From Candidatus Saccharimonadota bacterium (GTDB taxonomy: Bacteria > Patescibacteriota > Saccharimonadia > Saccharimonadales > JAGPDM01): 47,250 bases of DNA. Under the pieces are notes generated by a model. That model searched no databases and was not told where the DNA came from. It saw only the letters and a list, made by a program, of their open reading frames with translations. The stretch spans positions 1-47,250 of the forward strand of contig JAGPDM010000002.1 of the NCBI GenBank assembly GCA_018057585.1, in the 5' to 3' direction. This document shows, one piece after another, positions 2 to 45,171 of this stretch (its first letter is position 1; every line of letters begins with the position of its first letter). A program made the translations under genes and the position numbers.

Positions 2-427
2 GCGTGCACAGCGCAGCGCATCAAAGCCCACCGAAAGGCTTTCGTTAGCCTCTATAGGCAGACACCAGACTCGATTCTCGCTATCGAGATGGCCATCACC
101 CGCTGGTGGATGATGCTCCGCCAGAATCACGGCGCCCGCCTGGTCGTCTGGAGAAACATCGATGAGTTCAATCAGTTCTGCGGAGAGCTGAGCCGACTGC
201 TGGGTGGCGACGATCAGGCGGTGATGACAATTCGTTACATCCGTTGTGTCGCGAGCCTCATTGCTTGTGATCTATCGTCGGAAATCGACATCACTCCCGA
301 GGTGATAAGTTCTTGGTTCGATGATGCCGCTGAGTATGAGGGAAACCCTCCACACGCTCGGTCCTGGACCATATCCGCCCTGAGAGAGCACATGCTGGGA
401 GGCTACATCCTGTTTCCGTTCAGCTGA
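2..427 (+). CDS. hypothetical protein, 5'-partial (frame open to the left window edge; first in-frame ATG at 89)
   Basis: No stop in this frame from position 2 to the TGA at 425-427. A hand count of the first 120 nt gives 69 G+C (about 57%), far above the rest of the window. No motif recognised. Confidence 0.4.
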   Translation, partial: ACTAQRIKAHRKAFVSLYRQTPDSILAIEMAITRWWMMLRQNHGARLVVWRNIDEFNQFCGELSRLLGGDDQAVMTIRYIRCVASLIACDLSSEIDITPEVISSWFDDAAEYEGNPPHARSWTISALREHMLGGYILFPFS

Positions 428-612
428 AAACAAGATGTCTGGAGAGGAGGTTTTTTATGTGCGTCATCGCATGTTTACACAACCCCTCTCCTCGCGCCCT
501 TGCGCCTCTCGTCTTCCAAAAAGTTCTGTTTGTCTATTTTTACCCCAATTATCGACACCAGAGTAGAACTAAAAATCTACACCAATCCGCCAGAAGCGGA
601 TTCCTAAACATG

Positions 613-853
613 CCAAATCCTACCAGCGGGGATTTGTTAACTTACTTTCGTCTGGGCATAAAGAGGAGCTTCCTGATAAGCGAATGTCATAATAACAATA
701 GAAGGATTCAACTCCGCCCCTTGTGGGCCGAACGAAGTGAGTTGTTGAATCCATTGTTATTATGACGATGAGATTATAAAGAACGACGATAGCCCAGGAG
801 CTTGAGCTACTTGCCGGTGCAAGTAGCATTAGTTTGTTTCTTTGGAAAGAAAA
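613..853. repeat. structured dyad-symmetric intergenic element, copy 1 (candidate ncRNA / MITE-like; aligned in + orientation)
   Basis: Shares blocks CCAAATCCTACCAGCGG, TCTGGGCATAAAG, AGCCCAGGAGCTTG, hairpin GCTACTTGC-cggt-GCAAGTAGC and terminal TTTCTTTggAAAGAAA with copies at 14031, 32786 and 43143. Long central stem GTCATAATAACAAT/ATTGTTATTATGAC. Ends 1 nt before the pilB stop. Confidence 0.8.
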
Positions 854-854
854 C

Positions 855-2630
855 CTACTCTCTAGTAACCCTCATAATCTCATCGATTGTTGTCATTCCC
901 TGAATCGCTTTGACGAAACCGTCTTGCTGCATAGTGACCATCCCATCCTTGATAGCAATGTCCTGCATATCATTTGAAGTGCCGTTATTTACAATCATCT
1001 TTTCAATTTCGTCTGTGACTTTTAATACCTCGTATATACCAATTCTACCCTTGAAGTGATTCGTACCTGGAGGTGCATCTGCTGGCACTTTACCTCGCCA
1101 AAGCGACAATTTGTTATCGACATGCAATTCTTCTGTCTGCTCGCCGGAGCCCTTAACGTCGGTCGACTGCTGTTCATCTGCCTGTTTCGCCTGGGCAACT
1201 ACATCATCGATCTTAAATAGTCCTTTTATCTCATCAAGCTCGGTTTCTTCCGGAACATAGCTTTCACGCATAGACGGATTTAGCCGTCTAACAAGCCTTT
1301 GGCCAATAACAACTCGAACCGTGCTAGCGATCAGGAATGGCTCAATCCCCATCTCAAGTAGGCGCGGCAAGGCTGTCGCGGCATTGTTGGTATGAAGAGT
1401 GCTAAAGACTAGATGCCCTGTTAGAGCTGCCTGAATTGCAAGATTCGCAGTCTCAGCATCGCGGATCTCTCCAACCATAATAATGTTCGGATCTTGCCGC
1501 AAAAGAGCCCGCAGTCCATTCGCAAAAGACATACCCGCCTTGGGATTAACCTGGGTCTGGTTCGTGCCAGGAATACGGTATTCAACTGGATCCTCGACTG
1601 TAGAAATATTAACTCCAGGGGTGTTGAGAAGATTCAAGACTGAATAAAGTGTAGTGGATTTACCAGAACCAGTTGGCCCAGTTACAAGTATTATTCCGTG
1701 TGGTTGAGTAATCGCATCACGAATCGCCTTCAGGGAATAGCCCCAGTAACCTAACTCCTCAAGTGTTAAAGCTTTGGCTGATTCGTTTAGTATACGCATG
1801 ACCACCTTCTCGCCATCCATAATTGGCAAAGTGCTGACACGCAAGGCGAAAAGCTGACCATTGATATCAATCTTGAAACGCCCATCTTGTGGTGCTCGAT
1901 GTTCGTCGATCTTAAGATTAGATAGAATCTTGATTCTACTAATCAGAGCAGCCGAAATATTACTTGGTAGCTTATTAGCCTCTCTTAAAACACCGTCAAT
2001 TCTATATCGCACCTGAACCATGTTTTCCCTAGGCTCAATGTGGATATCGCTGGCCTTTTGCTTGATTGCATATTCAACTAAAAGATTGACCGTCTGGGCA
2101 ATTGGACTATCCTCGGCGATGTCCTCCTCTCTAACTTCTTGAACTTCCGGCTTTGCTTCATTATGAGTCTCGGTCACTTTGCTGATTTCGCTGCCTATCT
2201 CACCCTTGTAGTCGTCAAGTGCGACCTGGATGTCATGACCACTAGCGATCGAAATCTCCATGTCCATACCAAGCTGCTTTTGCAAAAAGTCTATTGCTTG
2301 AAGATCGTCTGGATCTTCCATGGCTAATCGAGGGATCTGGTTTTCATAATCATAGAGGATTACTCGATATTTACGAGCAATTCTTTCAGGTATTTTGTTT
2401 AGGGTCTCTTTTTTTATTTTCCGACCAGCTAATTCAACATAAGGCGTGTTGGTCTCAGTGGCGTAGAGTTTGGTCAGATCCTTTTCGCTAAGAATCTGTT
2501 TCTTAAGAGCTAGAGACTGCAGCGATATTTTATCCTTCTGGCCCTCGGCTTTAAATTCTTCAACTGCTCCATCTTCGAGCTTGCCAGAGTCAACAAGCAG
2601 ATCAACAATCATCGAATCTGGTATTCGCAT
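855..2630 (-). CDS. pilB: type IV pilus assembly ATPase PilB (GspE family)
   Basis: 591 aa. Walker A GPTGSGKSTT, T2SSE N-terminal region, typical GspE/PilB core (RQDPNIIMVGEIRD). Confidence 0.95.
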   Translation of the reverse strand: MRIPDSMIVDLLVDSGKLEDGAVEEFKAEGQKDKISLQSLALKKQILSEKDLTKLYATETNTPYVELAGRKIKKETLNKIPERIARKYRVILYDYENQIPRLAMEDPDDLQAIDFLQKQLGMDMEISIASGHDIQVALDDYKGEIGSEISKVTETHNEAKPEVQEVREEDIAEDSPIAQTVNLLVEYAIKQKASDIHIEPRENMVQVRYRIDGVLREANKLPSNISAALISRIKILSNLKIDEHRAPQDGRFKIDINGQLFALRVSTLPIMDGEKVVMRILNESAKALTLEELGYWGYSLKAIRDAITQPHGIILVTGPTGSGKSTTLYSVLNLLNTPGVNISTVEDPVEYRIPGTNQTQVNPKAGMSFANGLRALLRQDPNIIMVGEIRDAETANLAIQAALTGHLVFSTLHTNNAATALPRLLEMGIEPFLIASTVRVVIGQRLVRRLNPSMRESYVPEETELDEIKGLFKIDDVVAQAKQADEQQSTDVKGSGEQTEELHVDNKLSLWRGKVPADAPPGTNHFKGRIGIYEVLKVTDEIEKMIVNNGTSNDMQDIAIKDGMVTMQQDGFVKAIQGMTTIDEIMRVTRE

Positions 2631-4616: not shown

Positions 4617-4644
4617 TATTTAGTCAAAGTTCTACAAGAGCTCT

Positions 4645-4670
4645 TAAATCCCTCCAATTGGAGGGATTTA
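4645..4670. terminator. hairpin terminator after pilA (AAATCCCTCC-aatt-GGAGGGATTT)
   Basis: Perfect 10-bp stem 29 nt after the pilA stop, followed by a T-rich stretch aagtttcgtt. Confidence 0.65.
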
Positions 4671-5035
4671 AGTTTCGTTGAAAATTATCAAGCCACCCAT
4701 GATCTTCAGTCCTTGTCTGAATAATCCTTCCTTTTCCTAAGAAACAAATGCAATCGCATCTTGCTGATGCACTACTAAAGCTCATGGCAGCAGCTGATCG
4801 GTTGCGAATGAATAGCCTAGCTGTCCATCAAAACTATGTCTATCCGTCCCAGATTGCATGGCAAGCAACTCCAAGTCGACCTTAACTGATTAAGCTAGGG
4901 CTCGCTTAATCTATGCCGATAAAATAAGCTGAGACTGGACATCTAGGTGAATGGGCAAATGCAACTAGTTATTCTATCTCTGCATAAAATAAAGTCTAGT
5001 TTCAATACGCTAAATATGAACGCTAGTTGTGGAAG

Positions 5036-13034: not shown

Positions 13035-13763
13035 TTATTGTTCTCGGCAAGGTCGCAGCACGCCGTCTTTGTCGAAGCAGACTTTTCTGTCAGCAAAACC
13101 AGCCTGTGTCAGGCCATCAATTCGGACATTACCAGTCACATGTAACTTCTGTTGCGGAGTGACGGTTCCAAGCCCTAGGAAGCCTCGGTCGTCGATAAAG
13201 AATGATCCGTTTGGTGCTCCACTACCAATGAAGAACGGGTTGGTATTAGATGTTTTGTTATAAATACCAAAACGGTTCTTGTTAGCACCCTCGACTGTCA
13301 GCACCCAAGACTGTTTATTGTCGTTGCTCTCGAGCTGTAGATCTGGGTCACCACCATTAGCCTTAGCTCCTCTTATGTGTAGCTCTGAGGCTGGGTTTCT
13401 GGTGTTGATACCAATCACACTTTGCAGCTTTTCCTTGCCAAGTAGCAATCTCTCGTCAGCAAATTCACCTGGCTCAGATTCAACAGTGATTGATTCTTTG
13501 ACGTTCTTTAGTGCTTCATCGTTTTGAACAACCGAGATTGTTCCATCACTGATATCTTTCTGAATACCAGATAGTTGATTTTTCAGATCAATTCTTGAAT
13601 TGACCAGCCAACCAATAACACCCAACATCAGAACAGTTAAAACCAAAGTTAAAATACTAGTGACCTTAATCCATGTCGGAGTGCCGTATGACGGCGATTG
13701 CTGCATAGGTGCTTGGACATTAGGCGATCCATAGCCCGGTTGAAAATTACTTTGTGGTTCCAT
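13035..13763 (-). CDS. membrane-anchored hypothetical protein with tail-fibre-like repeats
   Basis: 242 aa, N-terminal TM. Repeated motif IGINTRNPASELHIRG / LGLGTVTPQQKLHVTG is reminiscent of phage tail-fibre-type proteins. Confidence 0.5.
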   Translation of the reverse strand: MEPQSNFQPGYGSPNVQAPMQQSPSYGTPTWIKVTSILTLVLTVLMLGVIGWLVNSRIDLKNQLSGIQKDISDGTISVVQNDEALKNVKESITVESEPGEFADERLLLGKEKLQSVIGINTRNPASELHIRGAKANGGDPDLQLESNDNKQSWVLTVEGANKNRFGIYNKTSNTNPFFIGSGAPNGSFFIDDRGFLGLGTVTPQQKLHVTGNVRIDGLTQAGFADRKVCFDKDGVLRPCREQ

Positions 13764-13792
13764 ATAAGACTCCCTATTGTTTACTGATGTTA

Positions 13793-13822
13793 ATAATACC
13801 GCTTAAGCCTAGTTCAAGTCAA
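13793..13822 (-). promoter_or_regulatory. candidate promoter (TTGACT-18-TATTAT) for the 13763 gene
   Basis: On the minus strand: TTGACT (13822-13817), 18-nt spacer, TATTAT (13798-13793). SD GGGAG lies 8 nt before the ATG. Confidence 0.5.
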
Positions 13823-14030
13823 AAATGACTTAAGAAAATTATAATTGTACTTGATGGCGATGACGAATCGTATAAATAGATCCAGATAAAGTCGCTAGAG
13901 CCAGCACAATTACCAGCGCACATTCCTTCCGACATAAGGCTACAGATTTGATTATAGCTTTAATGCCTAGTTAGTGGAAACCTATAATTTAAGCTCACAA
14001 ATTACTCTCAGAATGACGAAGATACCTGAT

Positions 14031-14270
14031 CCAAATCCTACCAGCGGGAATTTGTTAACTTCCTTTGTCTGGGCATAAAGGATTGAGTCCTGATATGTGA
14101 ATGTTATTTAAACAATAATACATTTTATCTTGCCCTTCGGGCCGACTGAAAGGAGTTGTTAAAATGATTGTTTCAATAACGATGAACATCTCAAGATGAA
14201 GGATCAGCCCAGGAGCTTGCGATACTTGTCGGTACAAGTATCATTCAATTTGTTACTTTGCAAAAGAAAA
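14031..14270. repeat. structured dyad-symmetric intergenic element, copy 2
   Basis: Same block order as copy 1. Hairpin GATACTTGT-cggt-ACAAGTATC. Central stems GTTATT/AATAAC, AAACAAT/ATTGTTT, CATTTTA/TAAAATG. Apical GCCC-ttc-GGGC. Ends 20 nt from the ruvC stop. Confidence 0.8.
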
Positions 14271-14289
14271 GATTGTTCAGAAGAACATT

Positions 14290-14757
14290 CTATCTCTGAT
14301 GGCTATGACAAAGCGCGGCAGCTAGCGCATCAGCCGCATCGTCAGGGGTTGGTTTAACTTTCAGTTCAAGTAGCACTCTGACCATTTCTTGTACTTGAGC
14401 TTTGGTCGCCTTGCCGTAGCCCGTAACAGACTGCTTAATCTGCAGAGGCGTGTATTCAAATATCTCTAGCCCCGCCACTTCACCGGCCAGCAAAACTACT
14501 CCGCGGGCATGGGAAACAGCGATCGCTGTTGTGACATTCTGTGCGAAGAATAACTTTTCGACCGACATAACTTCTGGTTCAAATTCGCGAATCAGGCCAA
14601 CTAAGTCTGTATGAATAATCTTTAGTCTCTCGGGCAGAGGCGTATGTGGTATAGTTCGGATTACGCCACCAGCCACCATCGATGGCTTGCCTCTTTTAAT
14701 ATCAATCACTCCGAACCCGGTTATGCCAGTGCCCGGATCGATGCCAAGAATCCTCAT
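14290..14757 (-). CDS. ruvC: crossover junction endodeoxyribonuclease RuvC
   Basis: MRILGIDPG start, 155 aa, typical RuvC. Confidence 0.93.
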   Translation of the reverse strand: MRILGIDPGTGITGFGVIDIKRGKPSMVAGGVIRTIPHTPLPERLKIIHTDLVGLIREFEPEVMSVEKLFFAQNVTTAIAVSHARGVVLLAGEVAGLEIFEYTPLQIKQSVTGYGKATKAQVQEMVRVLLELKVKPTPDDAADALAAALCHSHQR

Positions 14758-43119: not shown

Positions 43120-43142
43120 TAATTTTAACAGATTTGTGTGTC

Positions 43143-43330
43143 ATATTTTGTAAATATCTATTAATGATACTTGCGTCGACAAGTACCTCAATCTCGTGGG
43201 CTGGTCATAACTCTTGAGATGTTCATTGTGATAGCGACAATGACTGGAACAGAATATGTGACTAGCCCAGTGTTTAGCGACACTTAACTGCACAGGTGTC
43301 GTTAGATTTGTTTCCTTTCTAAAGAAAGGA
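43143..43330. repeat. structured dyad-symmetric intergenic element, copy 4 (shorter, palindromised variant)
   Basis: The right arm (43262-43330) is collinear with the 3' module of copies 1-3. The left arm (43163-43225) matches the reverse complement of that same module (about 36 of 45 positions against copy 2). A/T hairpins at both ends. Confidence 0.7.
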
Positions 43331-43335
43331 TAGCT

Positions 43336-45171
43336 CTATTCAGCTAGTGCAACTGTTTTTGGGACAATGCTGCCTGCAAATATTTTTAGAACATCGTCTG
43401 CGTCGACTGTCTCTTTTTCTAATAGAATGTCTGCTAGTTTCTTTAAGTATGGCTTGTTGGCGTTTATAACGTCTTCAGCACGTCTTGCAGCCTCTTGAAT
43501 CAGACCTTCAACTTCTGTATCAATCACTTTAGCAGTGTCTTCTGAGTACGGCTTATCATGAACCATACGGTCAAACATCAAGCCGCTATTTTGGTCTGTA
43601 TTAAACACGATGTCGCGTAGTTTCTCGCCCATCCCCTGCTCAACTATCATTTCTCTTGCTAACTCAGATGCTTTTTTAAGATCAGATCCAGCACCGGTAG
43701 TAACGCTATTAACACCGTAAATAACTTTCTCGGCGATTCTACCGCCTAAGATACGAGCTAATACATCTTTGTAGTCATTAATAGAATGGTAGCTTTTATC
43801 TTCTGGTGGGATTGCCCAGGTCACGCCACCAGTACCACCGCGTGGGATAATGGTCACTTTGTGGATTGGATCGCTTAACGGTAATACGTGTCCAACAAGT
43901 GCATGACCAGCTTCATGATAAGCGGTCATTTCCTTTTCTTTTTCGTTCATTATCTTGTTCTTGCGTTCTGGACCGATAGCTACCTTTTCAAAAGCTTCGG
44001 TAACATCAAGATTGTCGATCATTTTTTTATCACGGCTGGCGGCAATAATGGCAGATTCATTAGCCATGTTAGCGAGATCAGCACCACTGCTACCAGCAGT
44101 TTTAGCGGCAAGTGAGCCAAGGTCAACATCGTCGGCCACTGGCTTGCCTTTGAAATGAACTCGCAAGATTGCTTCACGATCCTTACGATCAGGCAAAGTT
44201 ATATTAACTCGACGGTCAAAACGGCCAGGACGCAATAAGGCTGGATCGAGTACGTCAGCTCGGTTAGTTGCTGCCAACACGATCACATTTGAATCACCTT
44301 CGAAGCCATCCATTTCAGTTAAAATCTGATTGAGAGTCTGCTCACGTTCATCATGGCCGCCACCCATTCCAGAACCTCTACGACGGCCAACGGCATCGAT
44401 TTCGTCGATAAATATAATACATGGTGAATTCTTCTTAGCCTTGCTAAACATGTCACGGACACGACTAGCACCAACACCTACAAACATCTCAACGAACTCT
44501 GAACCACTAATGCTAAAGAACGGAACACCAGCCTCACCGGCAACGGCCCGTGCAAGTAGCGTTTTGCCAGTACCAGGAGAACCAACTAACAGCACACCTT
44601 TTGGTATTTTGGCACCCATTTTTTGAAACTTCTTAGGATATTTCAAAAACTGCACAACTTCCGCAAGATCGTCTTTTGCCTCGTCGTTACCTGCTATCTC
44701 GGTGAAATCTACCTTCTTTTTATCTGTTCCGTAGACTCGTGCCTTAGATTTACCGAAACTCATTGCCTGATTGCCCTGGCCTTGAGCATTCTTCATCATG
44801 AAGTAGAAGAATCCAATTATGATAAACACGCTAATGAAGGGTGCGGCTAAGCTGACGCCGGTAGCAAAGCTAGTGCTCTCTGGCTTGACGCTATAATTGA
44901 ACTTGCTAGTATCAACGCCAAGCTCTTTGAGCGAAACATTTGGCTCTTTACGGCTCTTTAGAGTTGGTTTGTCTTTTCCTTCAGTCGTGATCTCTAATAC
45001 GTCACCACGCTGCGTAACTGTAGCAATTTCGCCGTCTTTGGCTCTGCTTGATAGCTCGCTGATGCTTATATCTTTAAGATCAGGGCTTTGTTGCCCGACT
45101 AAATAGACAAGCCCAATCAGTATTAAGGTTGCTATTAAAAACCCGGTTGCTCTTGATGATTTATTTTTCAT
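43336..45171 (-). CDS. ftsH: ATP-dependent zinc metalloprotease FtsH
   Basis: GSPGTGKT Walker A, the AAA second region of homology, HEAGH zinc motif. Confidence 0.97.

Follow-up and report, generated by a model that had tools for sequence, protein, structure and literature searches.

The ERIC/IRU elements of enterobacteria are imperfect palindromes of about 127 bp located in transcribed intergenic regions, and no transposase is known for them. In Neisseria, Correia elements (CREE) are characterized by inverted repeats of 26 bp at their termini and by duplication of a TA target. Integron attC sites, the ends of IS200/IS605 elements and their non-autonomous derivatives, and the REP/RAYT system provide models for DNA units recognized through hairpins on a single strand. 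Saccharibacteria (TM7) and other bacteria of the candidate phyla radiation (CPR) have very small genomes. In a 47,250-nt stretch of DNA from Candidatus Saccharimonadota bacterium (assembly GCA_018057585.1, contig JAGPDM010000002.1, positions 1 to 47,250; hereafter, the window), we analyzed a structured element, copy 2 (c2), which occupies positions 14027..14289 on the + strand between ruvC and the next gene. Comparison with its other copies, designated c1 to c9 or by their contigs (L057 and so on), shows that such elements, which we call rod elements, form a new family of modular repeats with predicted structure. The reading we prefer, and to which we give about an even chance, is that copy 2 is a member of this lineage-specific, hairpin-rich, interspersed repeat family and is a passenger at ruvC.

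Rod elements resemble ERIC/IRU elements in being dispersed, non-coding, imperfect palindromes of 100–150 nt that would form long hairpins if transcribed and whose occupancy varies between strains; they differ in their additional 5′, 3′, and A/T hairpins, strand bias, and reduced-genome CPR host, and show no sequence relation. As in BOX elements of Streptococcus pneumoniae and BIMEs of E. coli, modules have been lost, repeated, and recombined (c7, the L079 copies, and c2/c6), whereas module size and sequence are different, and neither a REP-like unit of 20–40 nt nor a RAYT gene was seen. The likeness to Correia elements lies in abundance in a naturally competent host, location at gene ends, possible terminator function, and hairpin RNA, but the terminal inverted repeats and the TA duplication are lacking. 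With attC sites and IS200/IS605-derived elements, rod elements share the primacy of structure over sequence, strand-specific folding, conserved unpaired bases, a position directly after stop codons, and same-strand hairpins; unlike them, the rod is longer than a typical attC site, and no array, core site, nearby integrase, or TnpA was found.

The rod element is multi-copy and non-coding and varies in occupancy between strains, as interspersed repeats do. Its 5′ end (TCCAAATCC...) is not an inverted copy of its 3′ end (...GAAGAACA or ...GGAAAGAAA), the arrangement expected of miniature inverted-repeat transposable elements of DDE transposons. Compared with attC sites (RYYYAAC ... GTTRRRY, arrays, intI), the rod ends, GTCTGGGC ... 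GCCCAGGAG, do not contain the core. IS200/IS605-derived elements (PATEs) would be expected to combine subterminal hairpins on one strand with a conserved target of 4–5 nt at the left flank and a TnpA (Y1) gene in the genome; rod elements have same-strand hairpins at both ends, and their left flanks (TAAAT, TTAAT, CTGAT, ACATG, and TAGTG) share no motif. No transposase or integrase was found in the window. No Rfam 15 family matched any copy at gathering or relaxed thresholds: only two tRNAs were detected in the window and one tRNA in six related loci, and relaxing the threshold to E ≤ 10 around c2, or to E ≤ 5 around c1 and around the pair formed by c5 and a family B element, brought up nothing relevant. 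Accordingly, 6S RNA (RF00013), a single-copy rod of ~180 nt with a large central bubble, was not matched, and rod elements are multi-copy and strain-variable. We found no paper on such an element, or on similar interspersed repeats or non-coding RNAs in Saccharibacteria or CPR bacteria.

In the aligned copies from the window and related contigs, the family-A rod element consists, in this order, of a 5′ hairpin, a rod of ~147 nt, a 3′ hairpin of 9–11 bp, and an A/T hairpin. The 5′ hairpin has the stem CAAATCC/GGATTTG and the conserved loop UACCAGNGG; in copy 2 (14032..14054, +) the arms are CAAATCC and G(G)AATTTG around the conserved loop TACCAGCGG, and the stem covaries in c9. The rod is imperfect, is closed by UCUGGGC/GCCCAGG, and has a conserved unpaired CAUAAAG. 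That of copy 2 (147 nt; 14068..14214, +), defined by RNAalifold and pair counts, is closed by TCTGGGC/GCCCAGGA (14068-14074 / 14207-14214, +) and contains the unpaired CATAAAG. The rod arms carry invariant motifs, UCCUGA and GNGAAUG in the 5′ arm and ACGAUGA and UMAAG in the 3′ arm, and the GA dinucleotides of the opposite arms face each other, forming a 2x2 tandem G-A loop. In copy 2, as judged from 10 diverged rods, these motifs are TCCTGA and GTGAATGT (14088..14104, +; G14099-A14100 in the tandem G-A loop) and CGATGA and TCAAGA (14180..14196, +; G14184-A14185 in the loop). In c8, the loop has turned into Watson-Crick pairs.

The apical hairpin of copy 2, GCCCTTCGGGC (14132..14142, +), varies in sequence among copies, with GTC-TTTA-GAC, GCC-TTTA-GGC, ACTC-ATTT-GAGT, and others found elsewhere. 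The 3′ hairpin module has a stem of 9–11 bp and a tetraloop; in copy 2 it is GATACTTGT-CGGT-ACAAGTATC (14221..14242, +), with 9 bp and a folding free energy (dG) of -8.7 kcal/mol, is terminator-like on the + strand only, and is followed by the T-rich tail ATTCAATTTGTTACTTT (14243..14259, +), in which 4 of the first 8 nt and 7 of the first 12 are T. The last module is a short A/T hairpin, UUUCUUUGGAAAGAAA or GUUCUUC-N5-GAAGAAC, the second of which (GTTCTTC-N5-GAAGAAC in DNA) also terminates c8, c9, and family B. In copy 2, the outermost small hairpin is TGTTC-AGAA-GAACA (14274..14287, +). The conserved element of copy 2, ~245–260 nt, spans 14027-14273, and its tail reaches 14289; the limits of the whole unit were derived from nhmmer and covariance model matches and from alignment with the other copies. 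The preliminary description of this locus, made from the letters alone, had pointed to the closing stem TCTGGGC/GCCCAGGA with a T-G wobble, a purine-rich segment, and a UUCG-like apex. The stem and the purine-rich segment are both present in copy 2. So is the wobble at the base of the stem, which is replaced by U-C in two copies, and the apical hairpin is present but not conserved, its sequence having turned over fully between copies.

The loop and 3′ arm of the 5′ hairpin, UACCAGNGGGGA (14032-14054), resemble the purine-rich strand near the rod apex (14143-14156) in some copies (c5, GACCAGAGGGAG; c8, GACCAUAGGGAG; L081, GACCGACGGGAG), and the likeness is weak in c1, c2, and c3. It may represent a repeated binding motif.

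The pattern of compensatory change shows that every predicted helix of the rod element has been maintained. In seven copies, 31 of the 66 pairs were compensatory and 93.2% of cells were paired, compared with 39–48% in controls in which the partners were moved by 1–3 columns, and none of 500 shuffles matched the observed pairing values. RNAalifold predicted 67 pairs, 24 of them compensatory, and when ten rods including distant ones were compared, 25 of 37 consensus pairs were compensatory. The 5′ hairpin stem of c9 was fully rewritten (GCAUUC/GAAUGC) with the loop retained, and the closing stem reads CGAAC/GUUCG and CAGGC/GCCUG in distant copies. At the position of the 3′ hairpin, all 16 copies have a hairpin (dG -5 to -13 kcal/mol), with covariation. 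The structured, non-coding nature first attributed to copy 2 is borne out, and the structure is far above chance. Covariation-based folding, which had been proposed for comparing the two strands, supports the helices, but Watson-Crick compensation does not separate the strands.

The window contains three direct copies and one inverted match, spaced 13–19 kb apart among housekeeping genes, and the 3′ modules of these four copies end 2–12 nt from stop codons. Copy 1 (c1; 610..860, +) is convergent with pilB (855-2630, minus strand) and has orthologous copies after pilB in L076, L079, and L081. Copy 3 (c3; 32782..33031, +) lies 6 nt past a 124-aa open reading frame (ORF) and faces the final gene of the dnaK-dnaJ cluster in convergent orientation. 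All three copies counted previously were recovered; the fourth locus (43140..43336, no single strand), located in the ftsH-murJ gap, had been missed. It is a tail-out chimera (z = -4.2) with a short rod and two outward-facing 3′ hairpin modules (c4a, +, 43216-43331; c4b, -, 43251-43154), in which the two element tails have one central hairpin in common. Other contigs of the same metagenome-assembled genome (MAG) and of relatives contain c5 to c9 and the copies in L076, L079, and L081, and the density was ~1 copy per 11–14 kb in ~57 kb of contiguous sequence. Among these, c6, found on a different contig of this MAG and confirmed in two further assemblies, shares with c2 a rod of ~165 nt that is 100% identical, whereas the 5′ hairpins show 4 differences and the 3′ hairpins are unrelated in sequence; c7 has no rod.

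Two further families share modules with family A. Family B (L057 19325-19560, -; L064 1645-1880, -; L076 205-439, -; and a mini form in L075 1290-1440, +) has its own distinct rod, with ~10 G-U pairs of 54 in the sense orientation, and shares the 3′ hairpin and GTTCTTCGTTTAGAAGAAC modules of family A. It always lies head-to-head with a family-A copy, at three loci, and contig L063 carries c6, c7, and family B. The head-to-head arrangement is common, being found for B/c5, B/c7, mini-B/c9, c1/c8, the L079 pair, and c4. Family C (4630..5035, -; fold z = -3.1) consists of a different rod of ~130 nt (CCTAG.TGTCCA ... TGGACAGCTAGG), a hairpin, GCATC-AGCAA-GATGC, and the family-A tail module, ATTGCATTTGTTTCTTAGGAAAAGGAAGG, at its end. 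A covariance model of the rod recovered all known copies, left families B and C apart from A, and gave no match in L061, L072, or L083. An exact pattern of the 3′ block, which was too strict in demanding GAG where c5 has CAG, gave 15 matches in 185,579 species genomes and 31 in metagenome contigs, all of them chance according to the nhmmer profile, and two scans of viral contigs found no copies. After pilB in L079 (11797-11990), 3′-type hairpin modules stand in tandem (CAACTTTGAATCGCAAAGTTG, CACTTTGAATCGCAAAGTG, TTACTTTGCAAAGTAA, and CCACCTTTTGGTGG), each with an A/T hairpin. Evidently, 3′ hairpin modules can multiply alone, as this array suggests.

Copy 2 is flanked, as previously noted, by tandem minus-strand genes, ruvC (14290..14757, -; Pfam RuvC) and a 242-aa gene of no family (13035-13763, -). 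The distance of ~20 nt to the ruvC stop given in the preliminary description holds for the conserved block, and the outermost small hairpin ends 2 nt from the stop. The two genes are separated by 526 nt in the window, by 149 nt in a relative whose RuvC is 97% identical (L057-L060), and by 58 nt in a relative whose RuvC is 71% identical. In the 97% relative, copy 2 is absent, the downstream promoter is intact, and the spacer contains no terminator-like site. Homology to this relative ends at the final ruvC codons (...CA(T/C)CAG), just before the stop codon, and restarts ~5 nt before the -35 hexamer, so that 466 nt in the window stand against 95 unrelated nt. The window RuvC has 155 aa, compared with 157–158 aa in relatives, and its last codons differ. 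The alignment shows that copy 2 is a strain-specific family member, one that appears to have overwritten the end of ruvC. An 88% relative carries copy c9 after ruvC, closer to c1 than to c2.

Occupancy also differs at the pilin locus, where L057 has c5, a full copy, together with family B, and the window has no c5 and carries family C (4630-5035) instead; homology resumes exactly at the common tail module. Many independent assemblies terminate inside c1 or c2, as repeats are expected to cause. Strain variation at the c3 site was rejected because the sole apparent short variant was a contig end. The ruvC spacer of L072 (10472-10960; RuvC 66% identical) holds a 112-aa ORF between direct repeats of ~38 nt (ACAGTAAAATAGTAACGCTTATA...GCATCGTCAAAG), and that of L075 holds a ParE-like toxin gene. 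To judge from these contents, the ruvC-to-next-gene spacer is an insertion hot spot.

Copy 2 had been described as occupying the position of an operon-end terminator or insulator, and it could have evolved in place for the ruvC operon, shielding the promoter of the next gene. It does lie between ruvC and a gene with its own promoter: the promoter-like site TTGACT-18-TATTAT (13793..13822, -), outside the element, was found by the promoter scan exactly as first described and is kept in L057. In addition, a weak minus-strand hairpin (UGUUC-UUCU-GAACA) followed by AUCUUUUCUUUU comes right after the ruvC stop. However, the element is absent from the site in the relatives with 97% and 71% RuvC identity, with the promoter retained, and the same element is found in unrelated contexts. 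Moreover, the sole terminator-like site in 13700-14400 is the 3′ hairpin at 14221-14242 on the + strand, which faces against the minus-strand ruvC, and the scan of this region found no stem-loop with a U-tract on the minus strand that would serve as an intrinsic terminator of ruvC. We consider evolution in place very unlikely; by these comparisons, the element is not the ruvC operon's own terminator. In the same window, a perfect 15+15 palindrome (CTTAAATCCCTCCAA/TTGGAGGGATTTAAG; 4643-4672) with flanking A and T tracts forms a canonical bidirectional terminator between convergent genes, which indicates that this genome uses ordinary intrinsic terminators.

The + sense favored in the preliminary description, which is the sense strand of c1 to c3 in the window, is the better-supported polarity. 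The sense strand had the lower folding energy in nine of ten rods, by ~4.7 kcal/mol on average, for copies that are related by descent and represent perhaps 4–5 independent lineages. Both family B sequences were also more stable in the sense orientation (-75.3 compared with -52.5 kcal/mol in antisense). Shared pairs included 14 G-U and 4 A-C, a count that leans toward the sense strand because the structure was derived from it. The conserved tandem G-A loop would read U-C/C-U on the other strand, and in c1, c2, c3, and c4a a hairpin with a T-rich tail occurred only on the sense strand. Mutational bias as the source of the strand asymmetry was rejected by reasoning only, in that the bias would be reversed if it came from deamination on the leading or non-transcribed strand. 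Taken together, these folding comparisons moderately favor the sense polarity and do not settle it.

Each copy could, on this polarity, be an independently transcribed small RNA gene, giving a + strand RNA of ~230–280 nt that acts in trans or as an antisense to the convergent gene. The sense bias in stability and G-U pairs agrees with this possibility, as do the conserved internal loops and hairpin loop and the long retention of the copy after pilB. The 3′ hairpin and T-rich tail of c1, c2, c3, c4a, and c5 were also recognized by the terminator scan on the sense strand and are, in this respect, like intrinsic terminators, with that of c2 opposed to the gene at ruvC. On the other hand, none of 13 copies had a sigma-70-like site within 150 nt upstream in the sense orientation by the tool's criteria, which non-canonical promoters may escape; neighboring genes of the same genome have canonical promoters. 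The + strand site TTAATG-17-TATAAT, cited earlier in favor of independent transcription, is present in the sequence, but its -35 matches at only 3/6 positions, it falls below the scan threshold, and it is unique to c2, so that the proposed transcription from it was not supported. A candidate -10 upstream of c8 is not kept in the c8 ortholog, and the spacers of head-to-head pairs are as short as 57–70 nt. Between 1 and 5 of the 8 nt after the 3′ hairpin are T, with the fewest in the oldest copies; half of the family, namely c8, c9, family B, and the copies in L079 and L081, has no T-rich tail. Since the hairpin is universal and the T-rich tail is not, the conserved feature is the hairpin rather than a canonical terminator. 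We regard small RNA genes as distinctly unlikely.

A strand bias in the absence of any promoter is also compatible with an element acting as single-stranded DNA, whose hairpins would be recognized on one strand by a structure-specific recombinase or HUH endonuclease that moves or recombines the unit. Same-strand hairpins at both ends without terminal inverted repeats or target duplication, structure kept while sequence varies, conserved unpaired bases, 3′ modules abutting stop codons, and accessory neighbors (the ParE toxin gene, a transposase remnant, and an orphan high-GC ORF) all accord with it. Nevertheless, no candidate enzyme was found in the window or beside any copy, and the nearby remnant is of the DDE type (rve_3). 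The copies are dispersed rather than arrayed, their rod ends lack the attC core (GTTRRRY/RYYYAAC), no conserved target of 4–5 nt is seen at the 5′ flank, and the ~10 G-U(T) pairs of 54 in family B would be better tolerated in RNA than in DNA. This explanation appears unlikely to us.

The family-A rod downstream of and convergent with pilB is present in the window (c1), L076 (PilB 84% identical), L079 (74%), and L081 (68%), and a second copy oriented toward recA is present in the window lineage, L076, and L079. No rod was found in a 64% relative with a different gene order. By this distribution, the element is old in the lineage and has been kept after pilB down to 68% PilB identity. Rod elements may belong to a new class of structured nucleic acids that have a function and are conserved across Saccharibacteria genera, either an RNA or single-stranded DNA substrate or guide for a recombinase or nuclease that spreads it, or a rod-shaped regulatory RNA. 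We hold this view tentatively and think it improbable. If it is true, proteins would bind at the tandem G-A, CCUGA/UMAAG, and CAUAAAG loops and at the hairpin loop UACCAGNGG, and a regulatory RNA would be tied to the adjoining pilus, competence, and recombination genes (pilB, recA, ruvC, and pilins). Persistence beside pilB with compensatory evolution, if functional, would point to a new motif of structured RNA or DNA, and the lineage is now genetically tractable.

Several points weigh against regarding copy 2 as a member of a passenger repeat family. The long retention after pilB and the conserved loops (tandem G-A, CCUGA/UMAAG, and CAUAAAG) fit a dedicated function better than a passenger. 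No mobilizing mechanism has been demonstrated and no clean insertion junction was recovered; the two comparisons of occupied and unoccupied sites indicate segment replacement rather than simple insertion, with no duplication visible; no other empty site was recovered, and the comparisons covered ~200 kb of lineage sequence. Relative to pilB, ruvC, and the other adjacent genes, the favored strand is the antisense one, and no promoter for it was seen, which leaves the making of a sense RNA unexplained and gives room for a single-stranded DNA role. The polarity itself is weakened by the shared descent of the copies and the lean in the G-U count given above, by the 5′ hairpin of c3, which pairs better in antisense, and by an invariant C-A mismatch of the sense strand, whose antisense counterpart would be a G-U pair.

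Under the interspersed-repeat reading, the main route by which copies spread and are reshuffled would be recombination or gene conversion among them, or the replacement of entire intergenic segments; mosaic copies, replacement at two sites, and the lack of inverted termini and target duplications argue for this route. These bacteria have machinery for DNA uptake and recombination, namely ComEC, type IV pili, and RecA. Neither terminal inverted repeats nor a target duplication nor a clean empty site was seen, which makes movement by a cut-and-paste transposase less probable. The structure would be selected on one strand, the + strand of the window for copies 1–3. If this strand were transcribed from outside, the 3′ hairpin and the rod could end or stabilize the transcript. 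At ruvC, the element would be a recent passenger that replaced the last ruvC codons, and its effects there would be incidental: it could act as a one-way barrier to antisense transcription entering comEC-yebC-suhB-ruvC, and it would give any ruvC read-through RNA a large structured 3′ extension. A hairpin repeat at ~1 copy per 11–14 kb would mark recent genome change and may shape transcription at gene ends, and it breaks short-read assemblies of these genomes.

A small protein gene, either the 60-aa minus-strand ORF at 14055-14237 or an 11-aa + strand ORF after AAGGAG, is scarcely credible. The longer ORF exists, and AAGGAG stands 8 nt ahead of a + strand ATG in c2, but every frame is broken in some copy, and c1, c8, and c9 lack the ATG. 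A profile search of 5.8 billion proteins with the translated ORFs gave two matches only, both on element copies (one identical to the ORF of c1 and the other located on c6). The earlier remark that the frame of the 60-aa ORF is broken in copy 3 agrees with the broken frames seen in other copies, by which the ORF is not coding.

Between copy 2 and the promoter of the 242-aa gene lies a strain-specific spacer of ~200 nt (13826..14026), which has no homology to the 95-nt spacer of the 97% relative and contains the + strand promoter-like site discussed above. In the 200 nt upstream of copy 2, no repeat found elsewhere, partner element, or second family was detected. The degenerate fragment of the element proposed at 13910-13939 in this spacer was dismissed: it shares only one exact 8-mer, TACCAGCG, with the element, and its local alignment score of 16 is at chance level (15.2 ± 2.5 for shuffled sequences, 376 of 1000 of which reached it). 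On the other side, ruvC closes the minus-strand gene run comEC-yebC-suhB-ruvC. The window and MAG GCA_017993655.1 have identical RuvC proteins, and the nearest named homologue is from ‘Candidatus Saccharibacteria bacterium’.

Other copies have neighbors of their own. Between c1 and c8 lies a 158-aa ORF with 56% GC (genome, 42.6%), found at 2-427 (+) in the window and in full in L066 (12204-12680, -). It is present in L076 and absent in L079, where the two copies are ~110 nt apart. No Pfam, PHROG, NCBIfam, PADLOC, or PDB match was obtained for it. As a mobilizing enzyme, this ORF was rejected: a search of 1.8 billion representatives gave one full-length match, to a 90% identical protein, and four further, weak matches to repeats in large proteins. 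In L063 (1712-2561, -), a frameshifted transposase remnant, comprising a 206-aa helix-turn-helix part and a 102-aa rve_3 part, is located 227 nt upstream of c6, and the 100 nt adjoining c6 are a second copy of the 3′ end of an acetyltransferase gene from the same contig. The 124-aa ORF that ends 6 nt before copy 3 (32402-32776, +) matches the phage family phrog_17560 (E = 1e-12), and it and copy 3 sit where the hrcA-grpE-dnaK-NYN-dnaJ-DUF3147 cluster converges. At copy 4, a promoter-like site, TTGAGG-16-TATCAT, overlaps the murJ-facing hairpin 45 nt upstream of the murJ start.

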